DNA of 46,532 nucleotides from a phage: sequence record PZ379549.1; one strand, written 5' to 3'. Shown here piece after piece: positions 3,928 to 36,282 of the stretch. The stretch's first letter is position 1, and each line of letters begins with the position of its first letter. The position numbers and the translations under genes were made by a program. The notes under the pieces were generated by a model that worked only from the letters and a program-made list of their open reading frames with translations, made no database searches and had not been told where the DNA came from.

Positions 3928-3993
3928 TTATTGCTCTCCTTTTATTAATTGATGGTTGATTATAACCCAACAAATCCATTTAGGTACAGACGT

Positions 3994-4016
3994 AAAAAAG
4001 CCCTCCATAAGAGGGC
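3994..4016 (-). terminator. rho-independent terminator after major capsid gene
   Basis: Minus-strand RNA GCCCUC-UUAUG-GAGGGC followed by UUUUUU. Confidence 0.65.
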
Positions 4017-4098
4017 GATTTATTACGCGAAGGTGATGCCTTTGATTACAGCCATACAGTCAGCGGGCGATAAACAATCAATCCCGTCGCTTTTGAGG

Positions 4099-11890: not shown

Positions 11891-11966
11891 TGGTGTTCCG
11901 CACTGGACTCGAACCAGTAACTAAGACTTAGGAGGTCTTTGCGTTATCCTGTTACGCCAGCAGAAC
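11891..11966 (-). tRNA. tRNA-Arg (anticodon CCU, reads AGG)
   Basis: Hand-folded 76-nt cloverleaf: acceptor GTTCTGC/GCGGAAC, D-arm GCGT-AACAGGATA-ACGC, anticodon arm AAGAC-CTCCTAA-GTCTT (U33, CCT, A37), variable AGTT, T-arm ACTGG-TTCGAGT-CCAGT, discriminator A, encoded CCA. Confidence 0.8.
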
Positions 11967-15445: not shown

Positions 15446-15530
15446 TTTCGTTTTCCTTTGTGCCTCTCGTTTCGATGAGATAATTATGCCATCCATGGCA
15501 TTATATGCGTTAGGCAAAAAGTGCTATTTC
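15446..15530 (-). promoter_or_regulatory. box-hairpin-(-10)-leader unit
   Basis: Variant box 15510-15530, hairpin GCCATGGATGGC, ATAATTAT, CTCATCGAAACGAG. Confidence 0.4.
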
Positions 15531-18700: not shown

Positions 18701-18760
18701 TAATGCATTATAAGCGGCTATTGATATAATGGCCGCTCAGAAACAATGCGGAGAGAAGTA
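18686..18760 (+). promoter_or_regulatory. box-hairpin-(-10) unit
   Basis: Variant box 18686-18703, hairpin GCGGC..GCCGC enclosing TATAAT. Confidence 0.4.
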
Positions 18761-20023: not shown

Positions 20024-20033
20024 ACTGGATACA

Positions 20034-20246
20034 ATGCAGGAAGCGGTTATGATTTTCAACGAACTAAGCAAGACTTATTTATCATCCGCTAGTGCTGCTG
20101 GTCATGCTGGTGACAATGCCGAGATGAACAAGCTGGTTGATATCCTGATTAAGCAGGGCAAGAATGGTAAAGGTGTTGTTGGTGTTCGCTCGTTGTATGA
20201 GGCTGCACGCAAGGTTAAACCTTTTGAAGCTCAGGCTGGAATGTAA
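20034..20246 (+). CDS. hypothetical protein
   Basis: 70-aa ORF. Confidence 0.4.
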   Translation: MQEAVMIFNELSKTYLSSASAAGHAGDNAEMNKLVDILIKQGKNGKGVVGVRSLYEAARKVKPFEAQAGM

Positions 20247-20347
20247 TGACTCGCATTAAGGACCACTTGATTCCTATGCTTGATGAGAAAAACTACACAT
20301 GCCTGATTGGTGATAAAATTTACATTAATCCACGATTGCTGGGGTAA
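20246..20347 (+). CDS. hypothetical small protein
   Basis: 33-aa ORF between two overlapping-stop junctions. Confidence 0.25.
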   Translation: MTRIKDHLIPMLDEKNYTCLIGDKIYINPRLLG

Positions 20348-20712: not shown

Positions 20713-21084
20713 GTTTTTCCTGAATATCATTAAGAGCAGAATGATGATGACGCAAAACATGATTCCACTCCCAATCCACGGGATTGCAGACGAATCATTG
20801 TTGGTGATTTCAATCTTCTCAGCCGTGATTGTTGATGCCTTGATTGAGTTATCAGAAGTCTTTTTACCGCTTGAACTATCAAGAGTGTCAACCTTAGAGT
20901 TCTTCACTTCAGCCTTTGCGCTGGAACTTGAATCAACCTTATTAGTTATCCCCACTCCAACCTTGTTATTCTCCGCACCTGCTTGAGCGCTAATCTCTGG
21001 CCTACTACCAATCAACCCGGTCAGCGCAGATGTTGCCGAGCAACCAGAAAGTATAATTACCGCAGCAATTAACGCAGCCTTCAT
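20698..21084 (-). CDS. unimolecular spanin (u-spanin)
   Basis: N-terminal lipoprotein signal with lipobox LSGC, Ser-rich periplasmic part, C-terminal transmembrane helix; last gene of lysis cassette. Confidence 0.55.
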   Translation of the reverse strand: MKAALIAAVIILSGCSATSALTGLIGSRPEISAQAGAENNKVGVGITNKVDSSSSAKAEVKNSKVDTLDSSSGKKTSDNSIKASTITAEKIEITNNDSSAIPWIGSGIMFCVIIILLLMIFRKNKKAP

Positions 21085-21567
21085 TTACCCACCCCACTTA
21101 AGCATAATTTAATCTCCTCGTTGCGCCTGTTGACGAGGCCTTTAACAACTTTTAGCTTGCCATTTACTCGAGCTTTATTCCAGGAGGCGAGAGCATTACA
21201 ACCCTGCTTCAATCTTGCCCTGATTAATCAGCCTTACTGCCGTTGACTTCCTCATTGCAGCGCCACCAACGTTGTAGCTAAAGCTGATTAACGCCGCCCT
21301 TGTCTGTGGAGAGATTGGGTAAGTTACTGCATCCTGCACATACTTTCCATGAATCTGGATGTGTTTCTCCAGTAAGTTCCTGCACTCCCTTGCACTGTAC
21401 TTTTTACCCCACACCACATCAGGACCAGTGATACCTGAACAAACCGTAGGAATGCCTGCAATGTCCATGTAAGGCTTGTATTCCACACCTTCTACTAGCT
21501 CAATAATCGGCGCTGCGATGTATATTGCCACAGCCGTCGCTGCACTAATTACCAGCTTCTGCTTCAT
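21081..21567 (-). CDS. SAR endolysin (phage lysozyme), apparent frame change near 21196-21215
   Basis: N-terminal SAR-like hydrophobic segment, catalytic region LVEGVEYKPYMDIAGIPTVCSGITG; C-terminal 34 codons (WNKARVNGKLKVVKGLVNRRNEEIKLCLSGVGK) lie in another frame ending at TGA overlapping spanin ATG. Confidence 0.6.
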
Positions 21568-21782
21568 TACTTACTCCTAATATTGATAGCTGTCTTTAAA
21601 TCACCCGACTCTAGAGCCTTCCTGATTGCCTGACTGTCCTTAAACTTCCAATATGCTCCCCACAGCCCGAAAACAACAAGAGCCACAAGGCTGATTATTG
21701 CTATAGTCATTTGACCAGTTGCGGCACCAGTTACAGCGGCTCCGCCGGTTGATGCCGTGGCGGCGTTAATTACTTCCCTCAT
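21567..21782 (-). CDS. holin
   Basis: 71-aa protein with one hydrophobic helix and charged C-terminus; directly upstream of endolysin; ATG 21782 preferred. Confidence 0.5.
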   Translation of the reverse strand: MREVINAATASTGGAAVTGAATGQMTIAIISLVALVVFGLWGAYWKFKDSQAIRKALESGDLKTAINIRSK

Positions 21783-21909
21783 GTGATCACCTTTAAATCC
21801 TAATTTGTCAATACATAGTGCAAATATCATACATTAGGCGGTGGCAAATTATAAGCAAAAAAAGGGGAGCCAAAAGGCCCCCCGCATGCAAATCTATGTT
21901 TTTGATGTG

Positions 21910-22083
21910 TTAATCTGCGATAATAAATTCCACCAAAGAGCCATCAATCGGCGCAAGGATGTGAGTCATATCGTCACCGTAAACTTTGTAGTAACCGTCA
22001 CCTAGAGACTCTGCGCTGTACGGCTGGTTTTCGGTGAACGGCAGTGTCTTTGAGTTGTTTTTAACGCAGTATAATTTAGTCAT
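21910..22083 (-). CDS. hypothetical small protein
   Basis: 57-aa ORF translated by hand, GAGGA RBS, downstream of box unit. Confidence 0.3.
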   Translation of the reverse strand: MTKLYCVKNNSKTLPFTENQPYSAESLGDGYYKVYGDDMTHILAPIDGSLVEFIIAD

Positions 22084-22160
22084 TTTTGAATCCTCTGTTG
22101 TTTTCGATGTAGTAATTATGCCGGATTACTCCGGCGATTGTTTAGCAATTCGTGCTATTT
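22084..22160 (-). promoter_or_regulatory. box-hairpin-(-10)-leader unit
   Basis: Box 22140-22160 (encodes kinase C-terminus NSTNC), hairpin GCCGGAttacTCCGGC 22120-22135, ATAATTAC, CATCGAAAACAACAGAGGA. Confidence 0.45.
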
Positions 22161-22696
22161 ATTACGTGCATTACCAAAGCAGAGGTTCCATCAATATCAC
22201 CATCTACAACATGAACGTCAATTTCTCTTGCGCAGACACCGCGAATGTAGGAGCGGCTATCTCCATCAAAAGTATAGCCAGGCCTAAAAAGTCTAATCAA
22301 AGTAACTTCAACCCCTGAATCAATGAGAGTATTAATCTCGCTAGCGAAGCCACCATCAGCACAGATATAGCAACCATCACCAAGTGATTGCGCTAGCCTT
22401 TTACCGAAAACATCATCACCAAAGACTGGCTTCATAACTGACTCACTAATCCAAATCATAAATTCACGAACCGTCATTCCACCAAGAAATTCATGTGGTG
22501 ATTCTTTGTACTCTCGGTCATCGTAATTCTTAATAAATTCATCAAACTCATCGCTTGATAGTATTCCTTTTGCAACATTAAACATTGGTGACTTGAATGA
22601 AACCTTATCCTTGCAAATTCCAAGATTAACAATGATATCTGCAACTGTATCTTTTCCAGCACCAGGGGGTGCATTAAGGATGATTAACTTTTTCAT
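22142..22696 (-). CDS. P-loop nucleotide/polynucleotide kinase
   Basis: Walker A LNAPPGAGKDT; ATG 22696 right after upstream stop; track start is upstream alternative. Confidence 0.55.
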   Translation of the reverse strand: MKKLIILNAPPGAGKDTVADIIVNLGICKDKVSFKSPMFNVAKGILSSDEFDEFIKNYDDREYKESPHEFLGGMTVREFMIWISESVMKPVFGDDVFGKRLAQSLGDGCYICADGGFASEINTLIDSGVEVTLIRLFRPGYTFDGDSRSYIRGVCAREIDVHVVDGDIDGTSALVMHVINSTNC

Positions 22697-22697
22697 T

Positions 22698-23171
22698 TTA
22701 TTCTCCGTGAGATTCGCAGTCTTTTGGTAATTCTTTATATTCACAAACTGACATTACAGTATATCCGCAATTCCTTAGGTGACTGATAACATTAGGATTA
22801 TCCTCAAAGATTATCACACTTGCTTTGTCACCATTACACAAATCATTTAGCCACATCTCTTTAATGATATAGTCATTTCTGTTATCCAATCTACTCCTCA
22901 TATATATTCCATCATAATTAATATTATTATACTGAAGCCATTCAAGCGTCATACATTCGACTTCGTCACTTCTTGAAGTCATGATGTAAACTGGCGATAA
23001 CTCAGCTAACGCATTCATCATGTTTATCATTGGAATTATCGGTGAATCTCCAGAACAGGCTCTATTGTAATCACTCCAACTTGAAGTCAAGTGAAGGTCA
23101 CTAGATGGTAAGAGGTGGCTTCTATGTTCATTGTTAGCAATAGTTCCATCAATATCAAACACGTAAATCAT
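22698..23171 (-). CDS. HAD-superfamily phosphatase
   Basis: N-terminal DxDGT motif (VFDIDGT); adjacent and co-oriented with kinase. Confidence 0.55.
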   Translation of the reverse strand: MIYVFDIDGTIANNEHRSHLLPSSDLHLTSSWSDYNRACSGDSPIIPMINMMNALAELSPVYIMTSRSDEVECMTLEWLQYNNINYDGIYMRSRLDNRNDYIIKEMWLNDLCNGDKASVIIFEDNPNVISHLRNCGYTVMSVCEYKELPKDCESHGE

Positions 23172-23250
23172 TACAACTCCTCATCTCGTTATCGTTTATT
23201 CATTTTGCCTCAATCCTTTGAGGCTTTATTAACAAAAAATGCTATTACTT
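23172..23250 (-). promoter_or_regulatory. box-hairpin-leader unit (variant box)
   Basis: AATAGCATTTTTTG box 23231-23250, 7-bp-stem hairpin GCCTCAA-tcct-TTGAGGC 23207-23224, leader TAAACGATAACGAGATGAGGAG. Confidence 0.35.
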
Positions 23251-24378
23251 AAACATTTCAGGTCGGCAAGTGAATCGACCAACTTCACCGTACTCTGAGC
23301 TATAGATAATTACTGAGGCCTGACGATAAGAGCGATACCCTCCGTTTGCGCTGTACGCATCTTTAGCACCCAACTGACCGTGTGACTCATCAATTCCAAG
23401 ATTACCCTCAGTAACCGTCTGATGATGATAATGGCCACTATGTGTATAAACGTATTCAGCATTACCAAATGCTTTGCGATGGTCGCGCGCAAGAGTTGAA
23501 AGACGAGTGTCAGGCTTTCGCAATTCATGACCATGGCAGTAACCCAACAATGTTTTACCAAACTCCGTCACGTGAAGAGCGGCTGGTGAGGCATCAACAT
23601 TTACACGAGGCTCATCCATGTAGAAGGCAGCCATTGCAGCTCGAAGCCAAATCATCCCAGAAAGGTCGTGGTTGCCTGGTATAATCTGAACCTCAACCTC
23701 TTTATGCTTGTCAAGCATCTTACTGACGGCGCGGCGAGTTGCACGAACAGCTACGTAGACAAGTTTATGATAACGGCTATCTTGATCAAGTACGTGCTTG
23801 CTGGTTGGAGTTACAGCTTCCATTCCATCCGAGTGAAGGAAGTCTCCACCAATCAGTAATACGGCTTTTGATGAATTCGGGGCCTTAGCAACTGCATAAT
23901 CAAAGTATTGGTTAAGCACTCGCTCTGCAATTTCTGTACTGTAGTTCTCCCCACACTCTGCATGGTGAGCCATTGCGCCAATATGCATATCAAACACGGG
24001 GTAGAGGCTCAAGGTGTCCTCATAGCTTGATTCACTGAGTGGTTTCGGAGTCTCTCGAGGGAGCTCATCTGTAAGCGCCTGAACAATCTGCTGAAGCATC
24101 TCTTCTTGTTTCTGTTCGTCGATGGAAGTTTTAACCCAGCGAAGCTTCTCATTACCATCCGCATCAATCATTGTTGAAGTGCCTTTAACAAGATAGCCAT
24201 CAGGAACTAGCTTCTTGATGCCTTCATTACCATGCCCAACCCCACTCTTAGCCAACTTGCTACGACGAAGCTCAACGTTTCGAATGTTCATTCCGTACTT
24301 CTCTGCAATCGCCTTGTTAGTCAGGCCGTTTTTCAGTTCTTCGATCAACTGCTCGGTGGTAATTTTTGCTGCTGCCAT
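23245..24378 (-). CDS. calcineurin-like metallophosphoesterase with N-terminal HTH
   Basis: HTH-like LTNKAIAEKYGMNIRNVELRRSKL; phosphoesterase motifs DMHIG, GGDFLH, GNHD, GHE, GHYHH. Confidence 0.55.
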   Translation of the reverse strand: MAAAKITTEQLIEELKNGLTNKAIAEKYGMNIRNVELRRSKLAKSGVGHGNEGIKKLVPDGYLVKGTSTMIDADGNEKLRWVKTSIDEQKQEEMLQQIVQALTDELPRETPKPLSESSYEDTLSLYPVFDMHIGAMAHHAECGENYSTEIAERVLNQYFDYAVAKAPNSSKAVLLIGGDFLHSDGMEAVTPTSKHVLDQDSRYHKLVYVAVRATRRAVSKMLDKHKEVEVQIIPGNHDLSGMIWLRAAMAAFYMDEPRVNVDASPAALHVTEFGKTLLGYCHGHELRKPDTRLSTLARDHRKAFGNAEYVYTHSGHYHHQTVTEGNLGIDESHGQLGAKDAYSANGGYRSYRQASVIIYSSEYGEVGRFTCRPEMFK

Positions 24379-24463
24379 TTTTAAGTCCTTAGTTCATCAC
24401 GATAAAATATAAGATAGTAAAGCTAACCAGTGGTGCTAATGCTACTAGGGCTACATATTTCAT

Positions 24464-24712
24464 TCAACCTCTTTCAACCAAAAGTCCAACAAAGTCAGCA
24501 CAAATTGCTAATTTCTTGTCCAGGTCAGTCATGCACAGGTTTCCACATGATGGTGAATAATAAATCTGTACCCACTTGCCATCTTTAGTCTTCGCATTAA
24601 CATCTACGTAGTCAGGAGGAAACCAGTCAGAAATAGGGATTGCTCTAAACTTATTCCCACTACTACCATGTACTAAGTCATAATGCCCAGGCTGAAAATC
24701 TAATCCCAACAT
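24464..24712 (-). CDS. hypothetical protein
   Basis: 82-aa ORF. Confidence 0.35.
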   Translation of the reverse strand: MLGLDFQPGHYDLVHGSSGNKFRAIPISDWFPPDYVDVNAKTKDGKWVQIYYSPSCGNLCMTDLDKKLAICADFVGLLVERG

Positions 24713-24714
24713 AA

Positions 24715-24957
24715 CTAAACCTTCGTTATCTTAAATTTGAATCCCTGTTCTTTCAGGAACTCATTCGTGTTTATCGTGACGCCAGGTTTAACACTGACAT
24801 ACTTGCGCGGCCTTTCATCCATGTACGTAAACTTACCGTTGAAGATGACACTGATATCTTTTATATCGAAGTACTTAGATATCATCTTAATGTCGTCCTG
24901 AATGCCAGCCTCTGCGCAGTGGGCCCAGACTGCGGCCCGTCCTGTTTCAACTATCAT
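24715..24957 (-). CDS. hypothetical protein
   Basis: 80-aa ORF. Confidence 0.35.
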   Translation of the reverse strand: MIVETGRAAVWAHCAEAGIQDDIKMISKYFDIKDISVIFNGKFTYMDERPRKYVSVKPGVTINTNEFLKEQGFKFKITKV

Positions 24958-25083
24958 AAGCCGTATGCCAATTTCAGGTATTCACGCGCACACATCCAAT
25001 GACTCATTCTGATTGAAACTCAACTGCATCAACTCAGTATAAATGTTGGGCAATCCTAAACATCTCCTTATCTACGATTTTCA

Positions 25084-25305
25084 TTATTCAAAATCCTCCG
25101 GGCAATCTTTTTTCATTTCCGCAATGTCTGCAACCATGCGTTCGCGCCATGTTTCGATGTCCGTTCGCAAGTAATCTTCTTCAAAGCTGTAATCAAGGCA
25201 TCCTGCTAAAAACCATGAGTCACCTTTATAACCAGCATTGTGTAGCTCCTGAACCCCCATTGCCTGAAATAGTTCCCATTGTTTGTCAAATGTTAAAATT
25301 GCCAT
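25084..25305 (-). CDS. hypothetical protein
   Basis: 73-aa acidic ORF. Confidence 0.4.
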   Translation of the reverse strand: MAILTFDKQWELFQAMGVQELHNAGYKGDSWFLAGCLDYSFEEDYLRTDIETWRERMVADIAEMKKDCPEDFE

Positions 25306-25310
25306 TACTC

Positions 25311-25505
25311 TTATACCTCATCAAATTTTTCGCCGAATTCGTTTTTAACAGTTTCCAGATCATATCTGTAAGTTGGGCTAACTTCGAATGCATATGTGCA
25401 GTCTTCAATGTCAACCAAAACATAACCATCTTCAGTTACTTGCATCTCGTAGATGTAGCCAGTCTTGCGTGATTCGTAGAATTTACCAGTATAGATAGTA
25501 GCCAT
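25311..25505 (-). CDS. hypothetical protein
   Basis: 64-aa ORF downstream of box unit. Confidence 0.4.
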   Translation of the reverse strand: MATIYTGKFYESRKTGYIYEMQVTEDGYVLVDIEDCTYAFEVSPTYRYDLETVKNEFGEKFDEV

Positions 25506-25590
25506 TTTCTTTCTCTCTTTGTGTGTTTCGTTTCGATGAGTTGATAATACACCAACTCACCAATTCGTCTTTAGCAATTCGTGCTATTTT
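25506..25590 (-). promoter_or_regulatory. box-(-10)-leader unit
   Basis: Box 25570-25590 overlapping upstream stop TAG, TATTAT, CTCATCGAAACGAAACACAC. Confidence 0.4.
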
Positions 25591-26007
25591 CTTATCATCT
25601 CTGCGAATGCCGCAAGAAAACCCTCTCTTCCATAAGCCACCGCTGCGAAACCGCCTGATTCCCTTACGCTTTTTAGGAATGACTTTTGCTCATTGCTAAC
25701 TGGGCTTGCTTGCGTTTTACCAGCCCTCTTTAACTCTATGGCGCCAAATGGATAACCGCCACGCAATGACTCAGGTATCAGAAATAAGCAGTCTGACACA
25801 CCTTTGAGAAGCCCCTTGGCTTGGTCTTTTCTTGCTTGACCAATGCTCTTTTTATTGATTCGTTAACTCGTGTGCCAGTAAACAATCTGCGGATAGTTGA
25901 TATTTCACCCAATCAGAGCAGAAGATTTGTTCATCGTCTTCCTTTGGGCATGACTTCACCGGTCCGCCATAGAACTCGAGGTAATCACCTTTGTCTGTGA
26001 TTTTCAT
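25584..26007 (-). pseudogene. VRR-NUC-type nuclease gene with about 3 frame changes
   Basis: ATG 26007 with GGAGG RBS gives EDDEQIFCSDWVKYQ; continuation YPQIVYWHT, NESIKRALVKQEKTKPRGFSK and GVSDCLFLIPESLRGGYPFGAIELKRAG...NEQKSFL lie in three other frames within about 150 nt. Confidence 0.45.
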
Positions 26008-26008
26008 A

Positions 26009-26263
26009 TCAATCCTCCATCGTAAATGATTTGTTGGCGATAATATCTTGCGACTTCTGATTCTTGCGGTGCGTAATCCTTAGCGGCGCACGGAAAAGAT
26101 GTGCATTTGTCATAATCATTTTAGCATTACGCAATCTGCCAATCCTAAAAGCCTCAGTCCTGTTCTCGATGTGAGTTGAGCAAAACGCCTTCCATTTGAC
26201 AGAACAAACACGATGGTCTGACTCCGGGAAGAATGTTTCATAAGCTCGGAATCTTGTCACCAC
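26009..26263 (-). CDS. hypothetical ORF (possible frame-shifted helicase tail or separate small gene)
   Basis: 84-aa ORF overlapping helicase 3' end. Confidence 0.25.
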   Translation of the reverse strand: MVTRFRAYETFFPESDHRVCSVKWKAFCSTHIENRTEAFRIGRLRNAKMIMTNAHLFRAPLRITHRKNQKSQDIIANKSFTMED

Positions 26264-28006
26264 TGTGAGCCATTACCTCATATGAAGCAACGATCCCTGA
26301 CTGGTTCTTTGTTAACCCAATCTTGAAGTCATAAACTCGCAACCAGTCCCCCTTACGATACATTTTTCCTGATAACTTAGCATTCGGGTCTATGAGCATC
26401 TCACCACAGCATCTGCAATTCTTAGCTGCAATATCATTCTTCTCACCGCATCCTTTCTTAATGATAGCTTTGGTCTGTGGGTCCGCTATATCTTCACACA
26501 GTCTAAACTGAAAGAAGTGCTCACAGCGCTTCCAGTCAATTACGTTATTGCAGCGCCTGGCTAATTGAGAGTTCACATAAGAGCATGCCGGACAGATTCT
26601 TGGCTTATCACCACGCTTTCTTGCTGACCTAAATTTCTGGTCTTGTACCTCTTCTATAATTGGGTCGAAGTAAAGTTCAGCCATATCATCAAGCGTTCCA
26701 GCAAAATCAAGAACAACATGGTCATCTTTTACCATTCCAGCTTCTTTGTGCTTCTTCTTAAGGATACGCATACCACGACCAAGCAACTGAATGAGTAGAG
26801 TAATGCTACCAACCTTCCTCAGGATAATGCTTGTATCCCACGGGGGGCAGTTTACGCCAGTTGTGAGGCAACCAATCTGAAATATGAACTTATATTCTCC
26901 GTTGGCTGCCTTCTCAAGTATCTCTCTACGCTTCTTCTCACCAGTGGAGTTGGTAACTATCGCCCAAGTAACACCTTCTAGGAAGTGCGGCTGCCGCCTC
27001 CATCGCAATGCTGTTTGCCAGCGCAAGTTACCAATGCAGCATTCCTTGTTTCCATAAACTTAGCAGCAAATCCCATTATCTTTTGTGTCATCGTTTGGTT
27101 TTCGTGAATCTTTGCAGCCATCGCATCCATTTCTTTCTTGCTGAAGTCCTTAACCCCATCACTTCCATCAGGAGTGAACTCACTAAGGTCGTAGCCCAAA
27201 TCACCAACTTCACCGTAGACAGTAGGAACAACGAACCCCAAGTCAACAAGGTAGCTGGTTGGCACTTGCATTACAGTTTTGCGCCAGAATCCACGGACAT
27301 TTGGGTTACTAACTACAATGTGGTCGTTGTTACGGTACGGGCTGCCAGTCAAACCGAAGATGCGTAGTTCGCGACCATACTTCTCTTTGCAGCGTCTCTT
27401 CATCTCAGTAATGATTAGCGTGTACTGCGCACGACCAGTTCCGAGCAATCCGGTATTCACTCCATCCTTGAAAACCATCTCACCCTTCTTCGTGCTCATC
27501 TGCTCGAATGTTTCCTCGTTCTCTTCAGCTTCTACGATATCCATATGGTCAACCATATGACATTCATCTATCGCAATAACGGCAGGAACATAGTCACCAA
27601 GGCCCTTAAACAAGCCGTTAGCAGCCGTGCCCTCACTAGCCACTATGGTTGGGTAGTAAACTGATTTAACGTTAAGGCCAGCGCAATAGACGCTATTACG
27701 GATGCCGAAGTTACGAAGCTCTTCAGCGTTCTGGCTGATAATTTCTGACTGGCGAGAAAGCACCATGTAAGGAAGCCCAAGCTGTTCCATGCGCTTTCCA
27801 ATCATGGCAAGAATAATTGTCTTACCAGCAGATACAGACAGGTCTGCGATGAATGGGGCCTCGTACTTTCCAATAGCCTTCCCAATTGCATCAAATGTCA
27901 CACACTGGAATGGGTAAGGAGTGATTTCTCCAAACTGGTAATCTCTCTGAATCTGCTTAATCTTCTCTTGATCGAAGTTGGCTACTAAGCGCTCTACTGG
28001 AAGCAT
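26238..28006 (-). CDS. SF2 DEAH-box helicase with C-terminal Cys-rich region, one frame change near 26978-27026
   Basis: N-part ORF 26978-28006 has Walker A SAGKT and DECH; C-part ORF 26238-27026 has motif VI QLLGRGMR; the two overlap in different frames. Confidence 0.65.
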
Positions 28007-28090
28007 TTTAAATATCCCGACATTTTGTTAGTTCGTTGCATTGCTGTATAATAACAACTATCGACCCTATTGTTTAACAAAAAATGCTAT
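28007..28090 (-). promoter_or_regulatory. box-(-10)-leader unit upstream of helicase
   Basis: Variant box 28073-28090, TATTAT, CAGCAATGCAACGAACTAAC. Confidence 0.35.
28024..28051 (+). promoter_or_regulatory. sigma70-like promoter for HTH gene
   Basis: TTGTTA (28024-28029), 16-nt spacer, TATAAT (28046-28051). Confidence 0.35.
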
Positions 28091-28102
28091 TGAGGTAATG
28101 AG

Positions 28103-28492
28103 ATGTGTGAAATTGACAAGCGAACTATCAACGGCAATAACGGAACCATCCGCACGCAAGACAAGAAACAGCGCAAACGACCGTCAGGCTACTACGTATT
28201 GAAAGATGAAGTAAAGGCTGGGCTAAGAGCTCGTCTGGAGATGGTTCTTGACTTCTACGGCACGAAGGCCAATATCGCCAAGCAGTTAAATGTATCTCAC
28301 CAGACTGTAGAACAATGGTTTGATCGCGGTATGATTTCGGCTCGAGGCGCCCAGCGAGCACATAATGCGTACAAGAGAAATAAGGGAGGGTTCCGAGCTA
28401 CTTTCTGCCGACCAGACCTGCAATTTGACGGTAACGGTAAGCCTCTGACGCTTACGATGCAAGAAGCGCCACATGCTACGCGTGGTTACTGA
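28103..28492 (+). CDS. HTH DNA-binding protein (candidate regulator)
   Basis: HTH-like GTKANIAKQLNVSHQTVEQWF; first gene of rightward unit; a +1 frame continues 36 codons past the stop. Confidence 0.45.
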   Translation: MCEIDKRTINGNNGTIRTQDKKQRKRPSGYYVLKDEVKAGLRARLEMVLDFYGTKANIAKQLNVSHQTVEQWFDRGMISARGAQRAHNAYKRNKGGFRATFCRPDLQFDGNGKPLTLTMQEAPHATRGY

Positions 28493-28585
28493 GGCTGAAC
28501 TAGCAACTAAAGCCACCTTGTCGACTCGTGGCGCAAGAATAAGATTGCCAACGAAGCCGCACGAAAAGCTAAAGAGTAAATAATT

Positions 28586-28618
28586 GGATGTGCCATAATC
28601 GGTACATCCTTTTTTATT
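28586..28618 (+). terminator. putative terminator before HNH-AP2 gene
   Basis: GGATGT...ACATCC stem with 12-nt loop followed by TTTTTTATT. Confidence 0.4.
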
Positions 28619-28630
28619 GGAGAGAAGAAA

Positions 28631-29110
28631 ATGAACTGGCATGATTATTTTTACTATGTAGATGGCAAATTGCATTGGAAGATTAGCACTGCAAGACGTG
28701 TTAAGGTTGGCGATGAGTGCAACTCACTATCTACATCTGGCTATTACAAAGTGTCTGTTAATGGCTTTAGGACTTATGTACATAGAGTTGTGTGGGAGAT
28801 GTTTAATGGAGAACTTCAAAATGGCGACTACATTGATCATATAAACCATAACAAATTAGATAACAGAATAGAAAACCTAAGAGTAACAACAAATCAAGGT
28901 AACTCAAGAAATTGCAAGCTTAGCGTTTTATCAACAACTGGTTATTGTGGAGTGGCAAAGCTAAATCACGGAAAATTTAAGGCTCACATCAAGGTTGACG
29001 GCAAGCAGCTACACCTTGGGAACTTCGATACTCCAGAGCGGGCGTATAAAGTAAGAATTGAAGCAGAGGGAAAATACAACTTTCACGAAAATCACGGGTT
29101 AAGCAAATGA
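28631..29110 (+). CDS. HNH homing endonuclease with AP2-like domain (paralog of 100-585)
   Basis: Same architecture: DHINHNKLDNRIENLRVTTNQGN then GVAKLNHGKFKAHIKVDGKQLHLGNF. Confidence 0.7.
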   Translation: MNWHDYFYYVDGKLHWKISTARRVKVGDECNSLSTSGYYKVSVNGFRTYVHRVVWEMFNGELQNGDYIDHINHNKLDNRIENLRVTTNQGNSRNCKLSVLSTTGYCGVAKLNHGKFKAHIKVDGKQLHLGNFDTPERAYKVRIEAEGKYNFHENHGLSK

Positions 29111-30030
29111 ATTACGATAAGAATGAAGTTATACCTAAGATGGCCGGATTGTGGAAATCATTTTATGCAAAGGAACTTGGTTGGAATGATAGACACCTAA
29201 GTAAGAAGCACGGACCATGCCCATACTGCTTTGGCACTGACAGATTCAGATTTACCGACGAAATAGGCAGTGAAAAAGGAAATGGCGCGGCAGTTTGTTC
29301 GAAATGCGGAAGTGACTCCGGTATAGGATGGGTCATGAAGTGCACTGGATTGTCCTTCGCTGATTCAGTAAATTTGCTTGGTGACTGGCTGAACTTAATA
29401 CCAATTGAGGTTATAGTTAAAGCAAACAAGCAAGCATCAAGAACGCAGCGTTATAAAATTTGCGCTCAAGTAGACCACAAGAAAGTTCTTGAGGTCATGG
29501 AGAGGACTCAGCGAGTTGAATCTAGTCCACTCACGACATACGAGGGTATTTATGACGAGTTTGGTTTTGATGTTGGTATAGCTAAAAATTGTTCAATGAT
29601 TCACGCAATCCCTTGTTCGATGGTTTATGAAGATGGGCTTAGTGATGAGTTCTGTAACGTAATGTTTATTGATGAGGATTCAAATGTTAAGTTCCTTGCT
29701 GGTGATTACACTCGTGATTCTGTTTCCGTTATTGGTTCTAAGCTGGATGATAGTTATACTTATGTTGTTGACAATTATATTGATGGCATACGTGTTCACC
29801 TTGCTACTGGTGGGCGCGAAGTGTTTGTTGCTTTCTCCTGTTACAATATGGAGATGGTTATCCACCGCGACAAGTCAAGGAAGTTCAGAATTGCTTGCCG
29901 TGATTCTGATAGCGATATACTCGCTGTTGCTGACGATAGGGGTGTTGATGTTGTAGTTCCTAATGACGGTGAGTCATTTAAAACAGGCATACGAAAGAAA
30001 GTGTACAAAGCAAACGACTTGCTAAACTAA
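29107..30030 (+). CDS. DNA primase (zinc-finger plus TOPRIM-like)
   Basis: CPYCFG...CSKCGSDSG zinc-binding motif, acidic TOPRIM-like C-terminal half. Confidence 0.65.
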   Translation: MNYDKNEVIPKMAGLWKSFYAKELGWNDRHLSKKHGPCPYCFGTDRFRFTDEIGSEKGNGAAVCSKCGSDSGIGWVMKCTGLSFADSVNLLGDWLNLIPIEVIVKANKQASRTQRYKICAQVDHKKVLEVMERTQRVESSPLTTYEGIYDEFGFDVGIAKNCSMIHAIPCSMVYEDGLSDEFCNVMFIDEDSNVKFLAGDYTRDSVSVIGSKLDDSYTYVVDNYIDGIRVHLATGGREVFVAFSCYNMEMVIHRDKSRKFRIACRDSDSDILAVADDRGVDVVVPNDGESFKTGIRKKVYKANDLLN

Positions 30031-30051
30031 CCTCCTTCGGGAGGTTTTTTA
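30030..30051 (+). terminator. rho-independent terminator after primase
   Basis: ACCTCC-ttcg-GGAGGT followed by TTTTTT. Confidence 0.8.
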
Positions 30052-30115
30052 TTGCCTGAAAGATGGTAGAATGAATTTTGGCAATTAGTGCTACTTTACA
30101 AATGGAGACTTTACA

Positions 30116-32647
30116 ATGGCAATTTATGACTTAGGAACAGCATCACTAGCCTCAAATGGCGAGGTTACTGGCGTAGGTACTACATGGAAAGCACCTCTTA
30201 CACTGATTCGTGTAGGTGCTACTATCATTTTCAAAACCAGCCCTCTGAAAATTTACACCATCTCTGAAATCATCAGCGATACTCAGGTTAATGTTTATAA
30301 TCCAAGTTCTGAAACTGTTCCCGCTGGTACTGGTTACGCAATTCTTGCTCATGATGGAATTACTGTTCAGGGGTTGGCGCAGGATGTTGCGGAAACATTG
30401 CGTTACTACCAGTCAAAAGAGACTTCTATTGAAAGTCTACTGCAATTTATCGGGCAAGATACTTTCGATTGGCCTCGCTTCGAGCAGCTTGCAACCCAAT
30501 CAACCACTGGGGCTGCTGAGGCGCTAGCTAGTCAGATCGCTGCCGCTGAAAGTGCGAGTGCAGCCGCCTCAGCAAGAGACGCTACGACAGAGGCACGCGA
30601 TGCTACTATTAGCGCAATTAATAATGCTGGTGACGCCGGAACATTAGCAACGCTTGCATCTTACAATATAGCAAACTCAGTAGCAATTAGAGCTACCTCA
30701 TTTGATTGGCAAACTTACGCATTTAAAAACGGCTCAAAAGTTTTAGTGTCAAAGTCAGCAATGGTAAACACTCCTTCTAGTGTAAATGACCTTATATCAA
30801 GTGCCGGTGCTAGTCTTGATTATGTAATTGAGTGCAAGATTGTTACAGCAGGAACTGGAGAGTTGCTTTTATCATCAGCAACAACATCAAATGCAAACTA
30901 CTATAACTTATCTATTAGATACTCAGTGTCAAACTCAGTAAGAACGTTTTATACAAGGGAGATTTTATCAATTCCATCAGGAGGTATAAGTGGAGGAGCA
31001 AGCTCATCAAGGGTTAGGGATTTGATTGATGTTTATTCAAAATCCGAGACGTTTCAAAAATCATTGAATCTTTCAGACATTGCAGATAAGTCCGTGGCAA
31101 GAACCAACCTTGATGTTTACTCAAAGGGTGAGGTGTCATCAATTTTAAATACAGATTCAAAAAGCACATCAAGCTATAGCGGCTCAATATCTTCAGCAAT
31201 AAAAGCCGCTGGCGATGGCGGGTCGGTAGTTATAAGTCCGGGAACTTATGAGAGTAATAACTACTCCTTTGCTGGCAGGAACATATCAGGCTCTGGATAT
31301 AATACCGTAATAAGTGTTAAACCTTTTGAAACCGGACTCACCTCAACGCTATCGGTTCCTCACTGGAGGCAAAAGCATTTATCGGATTTGCAGTTTACAG
31401 GTACTGCAATACAAGGTAATAACGGCTTTCAATTCCCGAATGACCCTTATGCTGGCAGGATTGTGATGGATAGGCTGTACTTCAGCGACATTGATGTTGG
31501 TATACGTAAAAACGCTGGCAACATTGGAAATACCTACAGAAACGTAAGTGTTAGAAATGCGAATTACGGGTATAGAGCAAAAGCTCATGACAAAATGCAT
31601 ATAGGAGCGGACACTTTATACGGATACCACTCAGATACAATCTCTCAATATTCAGTAATGCTAGATGCGACAAGCACAAGTAGCGCAACGAACCCTGGTG
31701 CTGGAGGAATTGGTGGGTGGTGGATTAGGGATTCAATAATGGAGGCCTCTGCTGGCGGCGGTATAAGGTTAAAGAATAAACCTGGAGATTGCCCAACATC
31801 ACCTTGCGGATTGTCTAACGTATGGTTTGAAGCGATAGCAACTGGTGGGGCAATTAACGTAGGTGAGGGAGCTGAACTCCCAAGGGTTTTGAAGCTCATC
31901 GATACGTCCGTTTTCTTTGCTGAGCATTCTTATATTAATAACATTGAGTTATCAAATTCAAACCTTGTAACTTATGGGTGCAGGTTTGATAACGCTGATG
32001 GGCACCAAAGTTTCTCTCTTGATTCGAACAGTATTATTTTTGCTAAGGATGCATACCTGAATGGATCTTCAACATCAAACGTTATAGTTGAGTCGCTGGT
32101 ATCACAGACAGCCAAGATAACTGGCACTTCAAACCTATCTGTTAGAGGATATGTTACTAAGGGTCGAGTTTTTAATCCCGATTCCGGAACTGTTTTAGTC
32201 AGGAGGCCTTTTGGTACTGGTGGGAACAACTTTGGTGGAACAGGGTCGGCAAGTGAAGGTTCTGATACAAGGGGTATACACTCGCAATCATCTGGATACT
32301 ACGAATTGGCTGGTGCGGCTCAGTACGAATTGATAAATGGTGGCTTTAATATAACTTCCGGCAAATGGTATGCTTGGGGTATTTCTGCAAACAGGATTCA
32401 AGGCGGTGCTGATGGTATTATAAACATTTTTGGTAGCGCATCATTAGGAACTGTATTCACAGAAGCTGGTAAGTGGGTTCATACATTTGGCGTTGGTAAG
32501 GCTTCGGTTTCTGGCGTTGCAAACCTTAACATTAACCTCAATGGATTAACTGGTATGGTATTAAGCCTTGCTGATTATTTTGTTGTAAAATTTGATAATC
32601 AAAGGGACGCCTTGATATTTGCAAACTCAAGAGTTTCTCTTGCATAA
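30116..32647 (+). CDS. tail fiber / tailspike with probable beta-helix (depolymerase-like) domain
   Basis: 843-aa ORF, Ser/Thr/Gly/Asn-rich; central region resembles right-handed beta-helix carbohydrate-active domains. Confidence 0.6.
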   Translation: MAIYDLGTASLASNGEVTGVGTTWKAPLTLIRVGATIIFKTSPLKIYTISEIISDTQVNVYNPSSETVPAGTGYAILAHDGITVQGLAQDVAETLRYYQSKETSIESLLQFIGQDTFDWPRFEQLATQSTTGAAEALASQIAAAESASAAASARDATTEARDATISAINNAGDAGTLATLASYNIANSVAIRATSFDWQTYAFKNGSKVLVSKSAMVNTPSSVNDLISSAGASLDYVIECKIVTAGTGELLLSSATTSNANYYNLSIRYSVSNSVRTFYTREILSIPSGGISGGASSSRVRDLIDVYSKSETFQKSLNLSDIADKSVARTNLDVYSKGEVSSILNTDSKSTSSYSGSISSAIKAAGDGGSVVISPGTYESNNYSFAGRNISGSGYNTVISVKPFETGLTSTLSVPHWRQKHLSDLQFTGTAIQGNNGFQFPNDPYAGRIVMDRLYFSDIDVGIRKNAGNIGNTYRNVSVRNANYGYRAKAHDKMHIGADTLYGYHSDTISQYSVMLDATSTSSATNPGAGGIGGWWIRDSIMEASAGGGIRLKNKPGDCPTSPCGLSNVWFEAIATGGAINVGEGAELPRVLKLIDTSVFFAEHSYINNIELSNSNLVTYGCRFDNADGHQSFSLDSNSIIFAKDAYLNGSSTSNVIVESLVSQTAKITGTSNLSVRGYVTKGRVFNPDSGTVLVRRPFGTGGNNFGGTGSASEGSDTRGIHSQSSGYYELAGAAQYELINGGFNITSGKWYAWGISANRIQGGADGIINIFGSASLGTVFTEAGKWVHTFGVGKASVSGVANLNINLNGLTGMVLSLADYFVVKFDNQRDALIFANSRVSLA

Positions 32648-32677
32648 AAAAAAGCCCCGAAAGGGGCTTTATCTTTT
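32646..32677. terminator. bidirectional rho-independent terminator
   Basis: A8-AGCCCC-gaaa-GGGGCT-TTATCTTTT between convergent tail fiber and SSB genes. Confidence 0.8.
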
Positions 32678-32678
32678 A

Positions 32679-33116
32679 TCAGAATGGAATATCTCCGTCG
32701 AATGTGTTTTGCTGTTGTTGTTGTTGTTGTTGCTGTTGATGTTGCGGTTGATGGCGCTGTTGTTGCTCTGTATTTTTATGTTGCTGTGCACCCTCACCAC
32801 GCTGACTAAACTCAAGACGAGGATTGTTCATGTTAATTGTTATGTAAGTCTTGCCATCTTTATCTCGAACATCTAATGCTAACGTCTCACAACTTACGCT
32901 AACAATCTTCCCTTCCTGAAACGCTTCGTTATACCATGTAAGCATTGATTCCTTTGCGAAGAAGACGGCACGATAGTTGCTATACTGAGATTGACCATCT
33001 TTATCCTTGTAACGCTCACTTAAATCAACCGCGTACATCTTCCAACTGCCATTTGCATTCTGACCTTCTTTAGTGAACGGAGCGCGACGGATAACACCAG
33101 TGATTACATGACTCAT
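32679..33116 (-). CDS. ssb: single-stranded DNA-binding protein
   Basis: OB-fold-like N-terminus, Gln-rich linker, canonical acidic C-terminal tail ending DGDIPF. Confidence 0.8.
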   Translation of the reverse strand: MSHVITGVIRRAPFTKEGQNANGSWKMYAVDLSERYKDKDGQSQYSNYRAVFFAKESMLTWYNEAFQEGKIVSVSCETLALDVRDKDGKTYITINMNNPRLEFSQRGEGAQQHKNTEQQQRHQPQHQQQQQQQQQQNTFDGDIPF

Positions 33117-33156
33117 TTTCTTTCTCTCTTAATGTTGGGGCCGCAGCCCCGTTAAA

Positions 33157-33807
33157 TTAGAATGTGTCGATTTCTTGAGATTGTACTTCAACTTTTTCTT
33201 CTTGAACAGACTTTTGTGCAACCTGTTTAGGTTTTGCAGGATTGAAGCCGTTAGTTGCATTAGCCTGAATTTCTGCCTTACGCTCAATGATGTGAGGTTC
33301 AATCACCAGCCAACCAGCTGAATCAAGAGACTGCTTGGCTTCTTTGTATACATCACGCAGGTCATCAAGAGTGTTGCACTTAGCTAAATCTTTCTTAAAT
33401 GAGTTGATACCCTTAACTGCAAGCTGACCATCATCATCTGCCTGGCTCAATCCTAATGCCGCTGTAATTGCATAACGGCGAGCATATGTAAGTGATGAGC
33501 CGTAACCTTGAGCATCTTGCTTGCTGATTGGGACGATTGTCAGGAAGCTGACCCACTCTCCAGATTCTGCATGATAGACAGTTGTTTCAACCTTAATTCT
33601 AGTTGTGGCTTCATCATCAATCATGCCTTGAAACATGACCAGGCCGCTATCTGCAAGGCCAGGCTCTACAGCCGCCAGTACGTCTTCCAGGGTGGCGTAC
33701 CTGTTCTTTAGGTGCGAGTTCTGCTTTGACTTTTCAGCCTTTGCAAACTTTGATTTGGCCTCAAATAAAGCCTTCAATACTTGCTTGTTTTGATCTGAAG
33801 TTTTCAT
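33157..33807 (-). CDS. Erf-family single-strand annealing protein
   Basis: Erf-like core ...QGYGSSLTYARRYAITAALGLSQADDD... Confidence 0.65.
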   Translation of the reverse strand: MKTSDQNKQVLKALFEAKSKFAKAEKSKQNSHLKNRYATLEDVLAAVEPGLADSGLVMFQGMIDDEATTRIKVETTVYHAESGEWVSFLTIVPISKQDAQGYGSSLTYARRYAITAALGLSQADDDGQLAVKGINSFKKDLAKCNTLDDLRDVYKEAKQSLDSAGWLVIEPHIIERKAEIQANATNGFNPAKPKQVAQKSVQEEKVEVQSQEIDTF

Positions 33808-33884
33808 TAACTATCTCTCTTTCGTTTAAGTGGGGCAATCATACCTCACCTTTTGATTTTGTCTTTAGCAATTAGTGCTATTTT
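33808..33884 (-). promoter_or_regulatory. box-(-10)-leader unit upstream of erf
   Basis: Box 33863-33884 containing exonuclease stop TAG, TATGAT, CACTTAAACGAAAGAGAGA. Confidence 0.4.
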
Positions 33885-34849
33885 AGAAGTTCTTGATACT
33901 GCTTACTTACCCACTCAGGAATCATCAAATCTTGCTCTGTAATCCCATTGCTATACCCAGGCCATACATCAAGCTCCTTGCACTGTTTGTATGTTGCTAG
34001 TGCCTCACAATATTGTAAACGACCAATGCGAAGCTGTTCATCTGTAAGCGTGTAGCTCATTGGTAAGTAAGGCTCCGTTTTTTCCTGCGCCAGAAGTCGA
34101 ACCACAACCTTACGCTTCTCGTTAAATGCCTTCACGAACAAGTCACGCTGAAGGCTCATTTTGCACAGGTATCCATGGTCATAAGCTGACTTGCCAAATC
34201 CTCTCGGGCTTGCGTCCGCCGTCGTCTTGTAGTCAGTAATGAAAACCACGCCATCAACAACATCCACGTGATCAAGCCTAACCTTAACACCACACCCAAG
34301 AATCTCACCAAAGATTGATAGCTCTTTCTGTGCTGTTGGTGAGTTAATAATCGCATCGTAAGCTGGGATATTAGTAAGAACCTCGCGCATTGAGATTACC
34401 TTATCGTAATCTTTCGCAGTAACGAGCTCTTTGCCACTAATTAACGCCTCAGCGCTCTCCTGCTGCTCAATTAACCATTTAACAGGCCAATCCTCACCAG
34501 ATTTATACATCATCTCCACGAGCTCGCTATATCCCTTCCCTGACGTGCCTGAAACTCCAACTTTTTTAAGCGCTGCGGATAAAGCCGTTTGGCTAGTAAT
34601 CAATCCTTCCACTTCGTCAAAGTCAGTAGCTCGCATGTATGTTGAGTCAAATACCTCGCGCTCTAGCATCATGCAGTGACTTAGTGTGCCAAATTTAAGT
34701 GCTGCGCTAGAGTTATTGCGCTGCTTAAACTTCCATTTAGCTGGTGAGGTAGCAAGAATCTCAGCCAGTGAAGAGCCAGAGATATGGTCTTGCTCTTCGT
34801 GATAGGATTCATTTGTTAGCTCGTCGTTCGTATAAACTTTAAATGTCAT
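33878..34849 (-). CDS. PD-(D/E)XK-type recombination exonuclease
   Basis: 323-aa ORF upstream of erf with D...ITDYKT nuclease-like motif. Confidence 0.5.
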   Translation of the reverse strand: MTFKVYTNDELTNESYHEEQDHISGSSLAEILATSPAKWKFKQRNNSSAALKFGTLSHCMMLEREVFDSTYMRATDFDEVEGLITSQTALSAALKKVGVSGTSGKGYSELVEMMYKSGEDWPVKWLIEQQESAEALISGKELVTAKDYDKVISMREVLTNIPAYDAIINSPTAQKELSIFGEILGCGVKVRLDHVDVVDGVVFITDYKTTADASPRGFGKSAYDHGYLCKMSLQRDLFVKAFNEKRKVVVRLLAQEKTEPYLPMSYTLTDEQLRIGRLQYCEALATYKQCKELDVWPGYSNGITEQDLMIPEWVSKQYQELLK

Positions 34850-34852
34850 GGT

Positions 34853-35047
34853 TCAATCCTTAATTTTAACAATCTTAACTGTTTTCAAATCTTCCTCAGT
34901 GAAGTACCCGGTCAGCAACTCCTTGGCCTCTTCCTTTGTCTCGAATTGGTCGGCTTCAGATTTGTTGGTAGTGTATCCAGCTGGGCCACCAAAGTAGCAG
35001 TCTCCGAACAGTGGGTTGTTTTTCTCTTTGATAATGTAGTAGGTCAT
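34853..35047 (-). CDS. hypothetical protein
   Basis: 64-aa ORF. Confidence 0.4.
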   Translation of the reverse strand: MTYYIIKEKNNPLFGDCYFGGPAGYTTNKSEADQFETKEEAKELLTGYFTEEDLKTVKIVKIKD

Positions 35048-35356
35048 TTCTGTATCTCTCTGTTTGCTTGCTTGCTTGCTTTCGATGGTTTAACTATATA
35101 TTCAGCGCCGCACCCAGTCCAATTGGTTTCGCCAATCGTTGATTTAAGTTTACGCGTGAATTCTTGTAATTCCGTGTGTACATTGGAACTAGTTACGTTT
35201 TTTGGTACCTGAGCCAAGCTATAGCTCAATGTAAATAGTGCGTATATCATGTATATCATTTATTGCTGAGGGTGCATTGGTATAGCTACCGCGCAATACT
35301 GTATAAATCCACATGATATTAAAATTATAACCGAAACACTCCATAAGAGCAGTTAC

Positions 35357-35439
35357 ATGATATACATAGTAATATATATAATAATAATAATAAGAGTAAA
35401 AGGTTGATATATATATATATTTTAATGTAACCAATGCGT
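35357..35439. repeat. AT-rich control module copy B, includes (TAA)n and (TA)n tracts
   Basis: About 85 percent identical to 16408-16495 by eye. Confidence 0.6.
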
Positions 35440-35515
35440 AAATTGGCGTAACATTGCGTATATCATTTTTCGCGGATGAGATTGCATACATCGAGTTACA
35501 TCGGTTACGCGTAAA

Positions 35516-35591
35516 CATAGCACTAATTGCTAAAACTGATCCGCAAAACCGGGTATAGTTAGCAACACAAACAACGAGAGAGAATTTTAAA
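35516..35591 (+). promoter_or_regulatory. box-(-10)-leader unit upstream of methyltransferase
   Basis: Box 35516-35535, TATAGT, CACAAACAACGAGAGAG. Confidence 0.4.
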
Positions 35592-36282
35592 ATGGTTATC
35601 TGGTCTTTATTTGATGGTTCTGGTCTGGCGGTAAAGGATTGGGCTGAAGCTGGCCACACTTGCTACTGTTTCAACTTTGATGAGTCTGACCACGGCAGCT
35701 ACAGTGACTTAAATGCAAAGGTTGAGCATGAGAACATCACATACGTTAACGCATGGATAGATGCTGACTTCGATTTTGATGTGAAACCTGATTTTATAAT
35801 GGCGTTCCCTCCATGCACTGACTTAGCCGTGAGCGGATCAAGACACTTTGAACGCAAGTGTACTAGCTAACCCTAACTTCCAAATTGAAGCTGCGGAGAC
35901 GTGCAAGATTGCTTTTAATCTTGCTGAAAAATACGGAGTACCATACATGATCGAGAACCCAATCAGCGTACTGTCATCACTTTGGCGAAAACCTGATAAC
36001 ACCTTCCACCCATATGAATACGGAGGCTATTTGCCGGAAGATGATTTACACCCGTTTTTTAGCGACCTAATAAAGCCAAAAGACGCATATCCCAAGAAGA
36101 CATGCATTTGGTATGGCAATGGGTTTAAATGGCCAGAGGCAATTCCAGTGGACGTTAACGGTGGATTCTCTGACCAATACAAGAAGCTAGGCGGGAAGAG
36201 CAATAAGACAAAGGTAATTCGCAGCCTAACTCCTCGCGGTTTTGCAAAAGCCGTCTTCATTGCAAATAGCACCAATTGCTAA
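35592..36282 (+). CDS. C5-cytosine DNA methyltransferase-like, one frame change near 35848-35870
   Basis: Motif I LFDGSGLA, PC motif FPPCTDLAVSG, ENV-like MIENP; two overlapping ORFs in different frames. Confidence 0.5.

Follow-up and report, generated by a model that had tools for sequence, protein, structure and literature searches.

Frame changes in the record of a T1-like coliphage genome are probably insertion-only consensus errors

Do the broken reading frames in the phage record PZ379549.1 belong to the phage or to its deposited sequence? The window analyzed here is the whole stretch of 46,532 nucleotides, a complete, circularly closed genome of a T1-like coliphage of the Drexlerviridae (Braunvirinae). 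A sequence-only reading had located frame changes in its endolysin, helicase and methyltransferase genes and possibly in an HTH gene, had likened each break to an indel of one nucleotide in a conserved gene, and had placed these breaks under the same question of artefact versus biology as the capsid block. All four frame changes are present, ortholog alignments make every one of them an insertion, and the capsid block shows the same insertion signature, pointing to a shared cause. From these sequence comparisons we put the probability at roughly 0.9 that the frame changes are insertion-only consensus errors in the deposited or assembled sequence, and not phage features.

Sites were compared with the phages AN_ECEAS, ES, phiA2-1, JeanPiccard, AugustePiccard and A110b, with two independent Logan assemblies (DRR232302 and ERR4228857), and with four IMG/VR contigs; the Logan contig L008 was used in the alignments, as were L009 and L003. 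The closest relatives, which are 96–99.6% identical to the window, are separate isolates from the sequenced phage, and against any single one of them the genome is mosaic. Inserted bases were positioned from nucleotide alignments, in which exact placement is ambiguous by 1–2 nt. At each site two to four references agreed and none contradicted them, and no relative whose alignment spans a site has the extra base there. Deletions in the relatives are ruled out as the source of the differences, since two to four divergent references concur at each site and their ORFs are intact. An apparent insertion at 34156 proved to be an alignment artefact with no real difference behind it.

Extra bases gene by gene

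The affected features are as follows.

2488..4877, minus strand: capsid and head-completion block, with the same signature at higher density
18746..20347, plus strand: DUF3987 (primase/helicase-like) gene, immediately upstream of the flagged range; extra bases near 20005, 20243 and 20245
21081..21567, minus strand: SAR-endolysin (Phage_lysozyme), broken at codon 121 by extra base 21206 (G on the plus strand)
24464..25084, minus strand: two small early ORFs, with extra bases at 24496 and within 24999–25047
25584..26007, minus strand: VRR-NUC nuclease, with extra bases at 25900, 25867 and 25857–25858
26009..28006, minus strand: SF2 DNA helicase, with extra bases at 27002 (codon 335), 26980 (codon 343) and 26252 (codon 585)
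28103..28579, plus strand: HTH transcriptional regulator, with extra bases at about 28454(/5), 28509 (28508/9) and 28526 (28525/6)
35592..36282, plus strand: Dcm-like DNA methyltransferase, with an extra base at 35862 (codon 91)

The endolysin gene is the simplest case. As it stands it comprises two minus-strand ORFs (21081..21212 and 21196..21567), and across 487 nt it differs from that of AN_ECEAS by one mismatch and one inserted base. Deleting base 21206 in silico yields an ORF of 161 aa, exactly the ortholog length, in which the Pfam lysozyme domain (residues 25–151) and the PHROG endolysin match (14–159) both cross the break. The number of C-terminal codons displaced from the frame had been read as 34; it is 40. 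Searches of IMG/VR and JGI metagenomes with 26–32-mers of this site, both exact and gap-tolerant, returned no match for either allele.

The helicase is more heavily damaged. Its two halves do overlap in different frames at 26978–27026, as the sequence-only reading had it, but the gene contains three insertions and not one indel, and a third piece, the last 79 codons (26009–26251), had been missed. Beyond the ORFs at 26238..27026 and 26978..28006 (minus strand), the reading frame runs from −2 through 22 nt of the third frame to −1 and back to −2, and tblastn with orthologs as queries returns three HSPs, which lie in frames −2, −1 and −2. Over 26009–27300 (1,292 nt), 16 mismatches and three one-base gaps separate the window from L008. 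With the three bases deleted, a helicase of 664 aa results, the same length as phiA2-1 GP36; its Helicase_C domain (residues 319–414) crosses the first break, and its last 79 codons are identical to those of AN_ECEAS. In the adjoining VRR-NUC gene, which the sequence-only reading had not listed, the frame passes from −3 to −1 by tblastn, and 424 nt aligned with AN_ECEAS hold one mismatch and four inserted bases. Taken together, the mismatch and insertion counts of the endolysin, VRR-NUC and helicase genes show that the indels are too many for the divergence.

The suspicion about the HTH gene near 28470 is confirmed: a stretch of 73 nt contains three insertions. Its present ORF (28103..28492, plus strand) is shorter than the orthologs, the shifted frame ending at a TGA at 28490–28492, and the same three one-base gaps appear in the alignments with AN_ECEAS, with phiA2-1 and with L008. 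Once repaired, the regulator has 157 aa, and residues 1–157 match phrog_2856. The methyltransferase likewise consists of two ORFs in different frames (35592..35870 and 35848..36282, plus strand), as had been described, and a single 1-nt insertion at 35862, between the FPPC and ENP motifs, accounts for their overlap at 35848–35870. Its nearest relatives are just 85–89% identical; alignment with JeanPiccard, AugustePiccard and A110b leaves one column found only in the window, and four IMG/VR relatives have the gene in a single frame. The repaired protein has 229 aa, and its match to phrog_757 covers residues 1–227. The repaired ORFs are exactly as long as their orthologs and match PHROG families end to end.

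Further genes carry the same kind of change. The base at 24496 changes the C-terminal end of an 83-aa protein, and a 41-aa ORF gains 5 nt within 24999–25047. The DUF3987 gene, which tblastn places in frames 2, 3 and 2, shows three one-base gaps relative to L008, L009 and L003 and repairs to an ORF of 532 aa. In the capsid block, about 35 insertions and no deletions are found in the window against IMM-001, and by tblastn two head-completion genes, as well as the gene for the major capsid protein, are divided among frames. Intergenic DNA contains insertions as well, at 15505, 16714 and 16777.

Selection has left the same trace on both sides of the breaks. In the restored frame, omega is 0.03–0.08 on either side in the endolysin, methyltransferase and helicase genes: 0.081 downstream versus 0.077 upstream for the endolysin, 0.057 versus 0.025 for the helicase, and 0.045–0.063 versus 0.026–0.054 for the methyltransferase. 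Downstream omega (about 0.05) is as low as upstream, and therefore there has been no decay past the breaks.

Direction, spacing and sequence context

Considered together, the indels are strongly one-sided. Among window-private indels not divisible by three, there are 15 insertions versus one deletion (binomial p = 5e-4). In four relatives, comparable indels are balanced between insertions and deletions and are mostly intergenic. The changes had been taken for isolated single events; instead, the helicase and HTH genes contain three apiece, no fewer than four further genes in or near the range are hit, and the clustering is significant. A neighbor lies within 75 nt for 12 of 17 events, where 2.7 were expected (P = 5e-5), and large genes totaling 21.5 kb contain no event at all (P = 4e-12). 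Since insertions fall in intergenic DNA and also strike presumably essential genes several times over, selection has not filtered them. The profile is directional, clustered and blind to coding status, which is to say non-biological.

The inserted bases also ignore their sequence context. They differ from both neighbors in 30 of 40 cases overall and in seven of eight in the flagged genes, and none of these eight lengthens a run of three or more, with the possible exception of 28509 (AA to AAA). A check for homopolymer runs at the breakpoints, which had been suggested, shows that signature to be absent: a homopolymer or slippage origin is ruled out, with only one of the 40 inserted bases inside a run of at least three. 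By eye, no GATC or CCWGG was seen at the eight insertion contexts, which disfavors methylation-motif miscalls. The flanks of the insertions are 98–100% identical to independent assemblies that carry intact genes. Setting insertion against deletion by means of orthologs and independent assemblies thus places the insertions in the window and strongly favors an artefact.

If the changes are consensus errors, the record would contain spurious extra bases, mostly of 1 nt and sometimes of 2 nt, of any kind, untied to homopolymers and arriving in local bursts. There seem to be few substitution errors, given that the flanks are 98–100% identical to relatives. Such bases could have entered through consensus calling that retains minority insertion columns, for instance by ignoring gaps, or through a consensus built from noisy, insertion-prone reads where coverage was poor. 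The exact technical cause is a guess, since insertion-only errors outside homopolymers are unlike the usual residual profile of any mainstream platform. The circle is cut open in the record within codon 3 of the tape-measure gene; such a cut would resemble raw assembler output, and would count toward the artefact reading.

The true genome would most likely carry intact genes, and the repaired ORFs (161 aa for the SAR endolysin, 664 aa for the helicase, 229 aa for the methyltransferase and 157 aa for the HTH regulator) are probably the best estimate of them. The record itself would then serve as a quality flag, with dozens of spurious bases, of which the early, replication and lysis region would hold at least 20 and the capsid block about 35. 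Gene calls, protein family seeds, pseudogene counts and recoding claims drawn from it would mislead until the genome is resequenced or polished.

Biological explanations

The insertions might instead be real, marking a defective or mutagenized genome with true pseudogenes, such as a non-viable variant, a dead genome assembled from a metagenome or one complemented by a helper. We regard this as unlikely. Real mutation would be possible for the methyltransferase and the HTH regulator alone, which may be dispensable. In addition, the HNH gene of the relative L008 is itself split, which shows that real or apparent frameshifts arise now and then in this phage group. However, the present case would require at least 20 frame-breaking insertions at once in presumably essential genes, including the helicase (three), major capsid, head-completion and endolysin genes, with selection not relaxed downstream of them. 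Spontaneous frameshifts favor runs and include deletions, whereas the indels here are insertion-only and lie outside repeats. The phage has no copy in 5,426 complete E. coli genomes and is therefore not a decaying prophage. Nor did exact look-ups in the protein collection, or searches of IMG/VR and JGI metagenomes, turn up the frameshifted alleles a second time.

It is very unlikely that the errors sit where a chimeric assembly joined two related phages that were present together, or that they mark real mosaic recombination joints. The visible mosaicism of the genome against each single relative is in keeping with such joints, as is the fall in identity to AN_ECEAS from 100% to 91% at insertion 26252. 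Against L008, however, both sides are 97–100% identical at 26252, 26980, 27002, 24496, 25867, 21206 and most other sites, and so the insertions are not indicators of switch points.

A further proposal accepts the extra bases as part of the packaged DNA and has functional helicase, endolysin and capsid proteins made nonetheless, through motif-independent +1 recoding or RNA-level correction, or else has a defective genome maintained by a helper; we consider it extremely improbable. For a phage to be viable with many frameshifts in genes that are presumably essential, an unknown decoding mechanism would have to exist, and nothing supports one.

Decoding of real extra bases into full-length proteins by conventional programmed recoding, whether +1/−2 ribosomal frameshifting or transcriptional slippage, is close to untenable. 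In every case the upstream frame does reach a stop 2–23 codons past the insertion, a superficial likeness to stop-stimulated +1 sites, but at the six sites checked there is neither an X XXY YYZ heptamer nor a run of five or more bases, the codons preceding the stops (TTG, TCC, TGG, TTA, AGC and TAC) have no common feature, and the downstream RNA folds are unremarkable (z-scores of +0.94 to −1.75 versus shuffles). Known programmed shifts are conserved, whereas here all orthologs are single-frame and the two-frame arrangement is not shared. The helicase would also require three separate recoding events, and to our knowledge none of the affected genes has been reported to use recoding.

Comparison with known systems

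The window shares with the tail assembly chaperone G/GT, with dnaX and with prfB-type +1 shifts the arrangement of overlapping ORFs in different frames that make up one functional gene. It differs from programmed frameshifting in having no slippery motif, stimulatory structure or conservation among orthologs, and in having several shifts per gene. The helicases of AN_ECEAS, ES and L008 are annotated as two CDSs, a likeness to the broken gene of the window. In these relatives, however, the split is an in-frame Hint/LAGLIDADG intein at motif II (codon 148/149), whereas the window helicase has no intein and is interrupted by single bases at codons 335, 343 and 585. An intein or intron split is ruled out for it: AIDECHMVDH is uninterrupted at the relatives' intein site, and the 1-nt events lie elsewhere.

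Frameshift pseudogenes born of slippage resemble the window in having ORFs truncated by single-base changes in length. Unlike them, the changes in the window lie outside repeats, come without deletions, leave selection intact and strike presumably essential genes of a virulent phage. The usual artefacts of 454, Ion Torrent and Nanopore sequencing concentrate in homopolymers and are often deletions; in the window, by contrast, 30 of 40 inserted bases are non-adjacent to a like base and virtually all events are insertions. The closest likeness is to frameshifted or "UNVERIFIED" draft phage records, in which record-private indels also fall in conserved, presumably essential genes. As in draft-genome consensus errors, the breaks in the window are repaired exactly by single bases, are followed by no decay, and follow a directional, clustered profile.

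Broken genes and their repair

The window sequence holds private extra bases, present there and absent from the relatives aligned to it, and their removal restores all of the genes. The sequence-only reading had placed single frame changes in the endolysin, helicase and methyltransferase genes, taking them for single-base indels in need of an artefact test. Our ORF map and alignments bear out the frame changes at its coordinates but show that they were understated. The suspected class of event was right, since each break is one or more extra bases in the alignments.

Broken genes in the window
21081..21212 and 21196..21567, minus strand: overlapping endolysin ORFs (ORF map)
26238..27026 and 26978..28006, minus strand: overlapping helicase ORFs (ORF map)
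35592..35870 and 35848..36282, plus strand: overlapping methyltransferase ORFs (ORF map)
28103..28492, plus strand: short HTH ORF (ORF map)
25584-26007: VRR-NUC gene, extra bases at 25900, 25867 and 25857-8 (4 bases); not flagged earlier
24464-25084: two small early ORFs, extra bases at 24496 and 24999-25047; not flagged earlier
18746-20347: DUF3987 gene, just upstream of the flagged range, extra bases at 20005, 20243 and 20245; not flagged earlier

By nucleotide alignment, two differences separate the endolysin gene from that of the relative AN_ECEAS: a substitution, and an extra base at 21206 (codon 121). Searches of the IMG/VR and JGI metagenomes turned up neither endolysin allele. The methyltransferase gene has a single window-only column, 35862 (codon 91), against the relatives JeanPiccard, AugustePiccard and A110b. 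The helicase, previously credited with one change, carries three extra bases (27002, 26980 and 26252), only the first junction having been caught; tblastn splits the match to orthologs into three pieces, read in frames -2, -1 and -2. Suspicion about an HTH gene near 28470 proved justified, as three extra bases fall inside 73 nt (about 28454, 28509 and 28526) and the shifted frame meets a TGA stop.

Deleting the listed bases yields single ORFs of 161 (endolysin), 664 (helicase), 229 (methyltransferase) and 157 aa (HTH), exactly the ortholog lengths. All four repaired proteins have end-to-end PHROG matches in one stretch (endolysin, DNA helicase, DNA methyltransferase and transcriptional regulator, respectively), and the Phage_lysozyme (residues 25-151 of the endolysin) and Helicase_C (residues 319-414 of the helicase) domains cross the breaks. 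In the restored frame, purifying selection is as strong downstream of each break as upstream: omega is 0.081 versus 0.077 for the endolysin and 0.045-0.063 versus 0.026-0.054 for the methyltransferase. The middle helicase segment has an omega of 0.057 in that frame, and the final 79 codons are identical to AN_ECEAS.

The repaired Dcm-like methyltransferase (35592-36282) scores 16.4 bits against Pfam DNA_methylase, below the cut-off of 22, and matches phrog_757 strongly. It is carried by the BASEL phages JeanPiccard and AugustePiccard and is missing in AN_ECEAS and ES.

Direction, density and context of the inserted bases

The choice between insertion and deletion, previously left to ortholog comparison, falls on insertion in the window at every site, with two to four references per site concordant and none matching the window. 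Frames are intact in L008 and AN_ECEAS, which are near-identical to the window around the breaks and are the closest available equivalent to independent isolates. Among private indels whose length is no multiple of 3 and that two or more references support, we counted 15 insertions and 1 deletion in the window (binomial p = 5e-4), the sole deletion adjoining an insertion 4 nt away. Four relatives had 1-4 insertions and 1-5 deletions each; private indels of the two relatives checked, L003 and L008, are almost all intergenic. Over 1,292 nt, the helicase shows 3 extra bases and 16 mismatches against L008, and over 424 nt the VRR-NUC gene shows 4 extra bases and 1 mismatch against AN_ECEAS.

The parallel drawn with the capsid and head-completion genes (2488-4877) also holds: against the relative IMM-001, this block has the same insertion-only signature, with about 35 window insertions and 0 deletions. 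Its error signature is that of the flagged genes, at roughly ten times the density.

The changes are not isolated, as had been thought. A neighbour lies within 75 nt for 12 of 17 events (expected 2.7, P = 5e-5), and the VRR-NUC, DUF3987 and two small early ORFs are similarly broken. Large genes totalling 21.5 kb contain no insertions (P = 4e-12); these take in terminase, portal, scaffold, tape measure, tail genes, tail fibre, exonuclease, recombinase and primase. Insertions also occur between genes (e.g., 15505, 16714 and 16777), and therefore the events are unfiltered by selection. The homopolymer runs sought at breakpoints did not materialize: 30 of 40 inserted bases are unlike both neighbours, which argues against in vivo strand slippage and classic homopolymer sequencing errors, and only 1 of 40 lies in a run of 3.

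Genome identity and layout

The window (46,532 bp) is a T1-like coliphage genome (Drexlerviridae, Braunvirinae). Among deposited genomes it comes closest to those of Escherichia phages ES and AN_ECEAS, with which it shares about 91-97% identity along most of its length; phiA2-1 is next. L008 (Logan DRR232302) and L009 (ERR4228857), independent assemblies made from public sequencing runs, are 96-98% identical to it across the early, replication and lysis region. Joining its end to its start (46532/1) rebuilds a Shine-Dalgarno GGAGG, an ATG and the tape-measure N-terminus MATNEIAGITLAVDVAQVDKG, identical to AN_ECEAS. Thus, the window is a complete, circularly closed assembly, cut open at an arbitrary point, within codon 3 of the tape-measure gene.

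Other features of the window
11891-11966, minus strand: a single tRNA-Arg(CCT) gene
100-585, plus strand: free-standing HNH homing-endonuclease gene, between tail chaperone and tape-measure gene
28631-29110, plus strand: free-standing HNH homing-endonuclease gene, between HTH regulator and primase

The HNH gene at 28631-29110 is shared with phiA2-1 and L008 and missing in AN_ECEAS. The window copy is intact, unlike that of L008 (L008 3550-4030), which its own 1-nt insertion at L008 3835 splits into 96-aa and 62-aa pieces.

Proposed origin and alternatives

The frame changes are not a biological feature; judged from sequence, we put the probability that they are an artefact at about 0.9. The extra bases most likely entered during consensus building, perhaps through retention of insertion columns backed by few reads, as in gap-ignoring consensus calling, or through reliance on noisy, insertion-prone reads where coverage was poor. 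Either route would leave insertions only, of any base, in local bursts and with almost no substitution errors. In practice, our analysis yields positions to correct and a warning against using the gene calls of PZ379549.1.

Real pseudogenisation is formally possible for the methyltransferase and HTH genes, which may be dispensable. For the helicase, capsid, head-completion and endolysin genes it is implausible: it would need three helicase hits plus hits to the other three in a virulent phage, and it leaves the insertion-only, non-repeat, clustered profile unexplained. Programmed recoding finds neither a slippery heptamer nor a run of at least 5 bases at any site, downstream RNA folds are ordinary (z +0.94 to -1.75), and the split over two frames is seen in no ortholog. 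Recombination or chimera junctions are countered by 97-100% identity to L008 on both sides of most sites, and a decaying prophage by 0 matches among 5,426 complete E. coli genomes.

An intein-type helicase split also fails, as the window is intein-free and breaks at other sites. Intein-bearing helicases lie at 6398-9532 in L001 and at 4652-7786 in L008. Unlike the window and phiA2-1 helicases, which have no intein at AIDE/CHMVDH, those of AN_ECEAS, ES and L008 carry one there, in motif II (codons 148/149; window 27560-27565), with Hint ends LTGDTMI...VVAHN and a LAGLIDADG_2 match.
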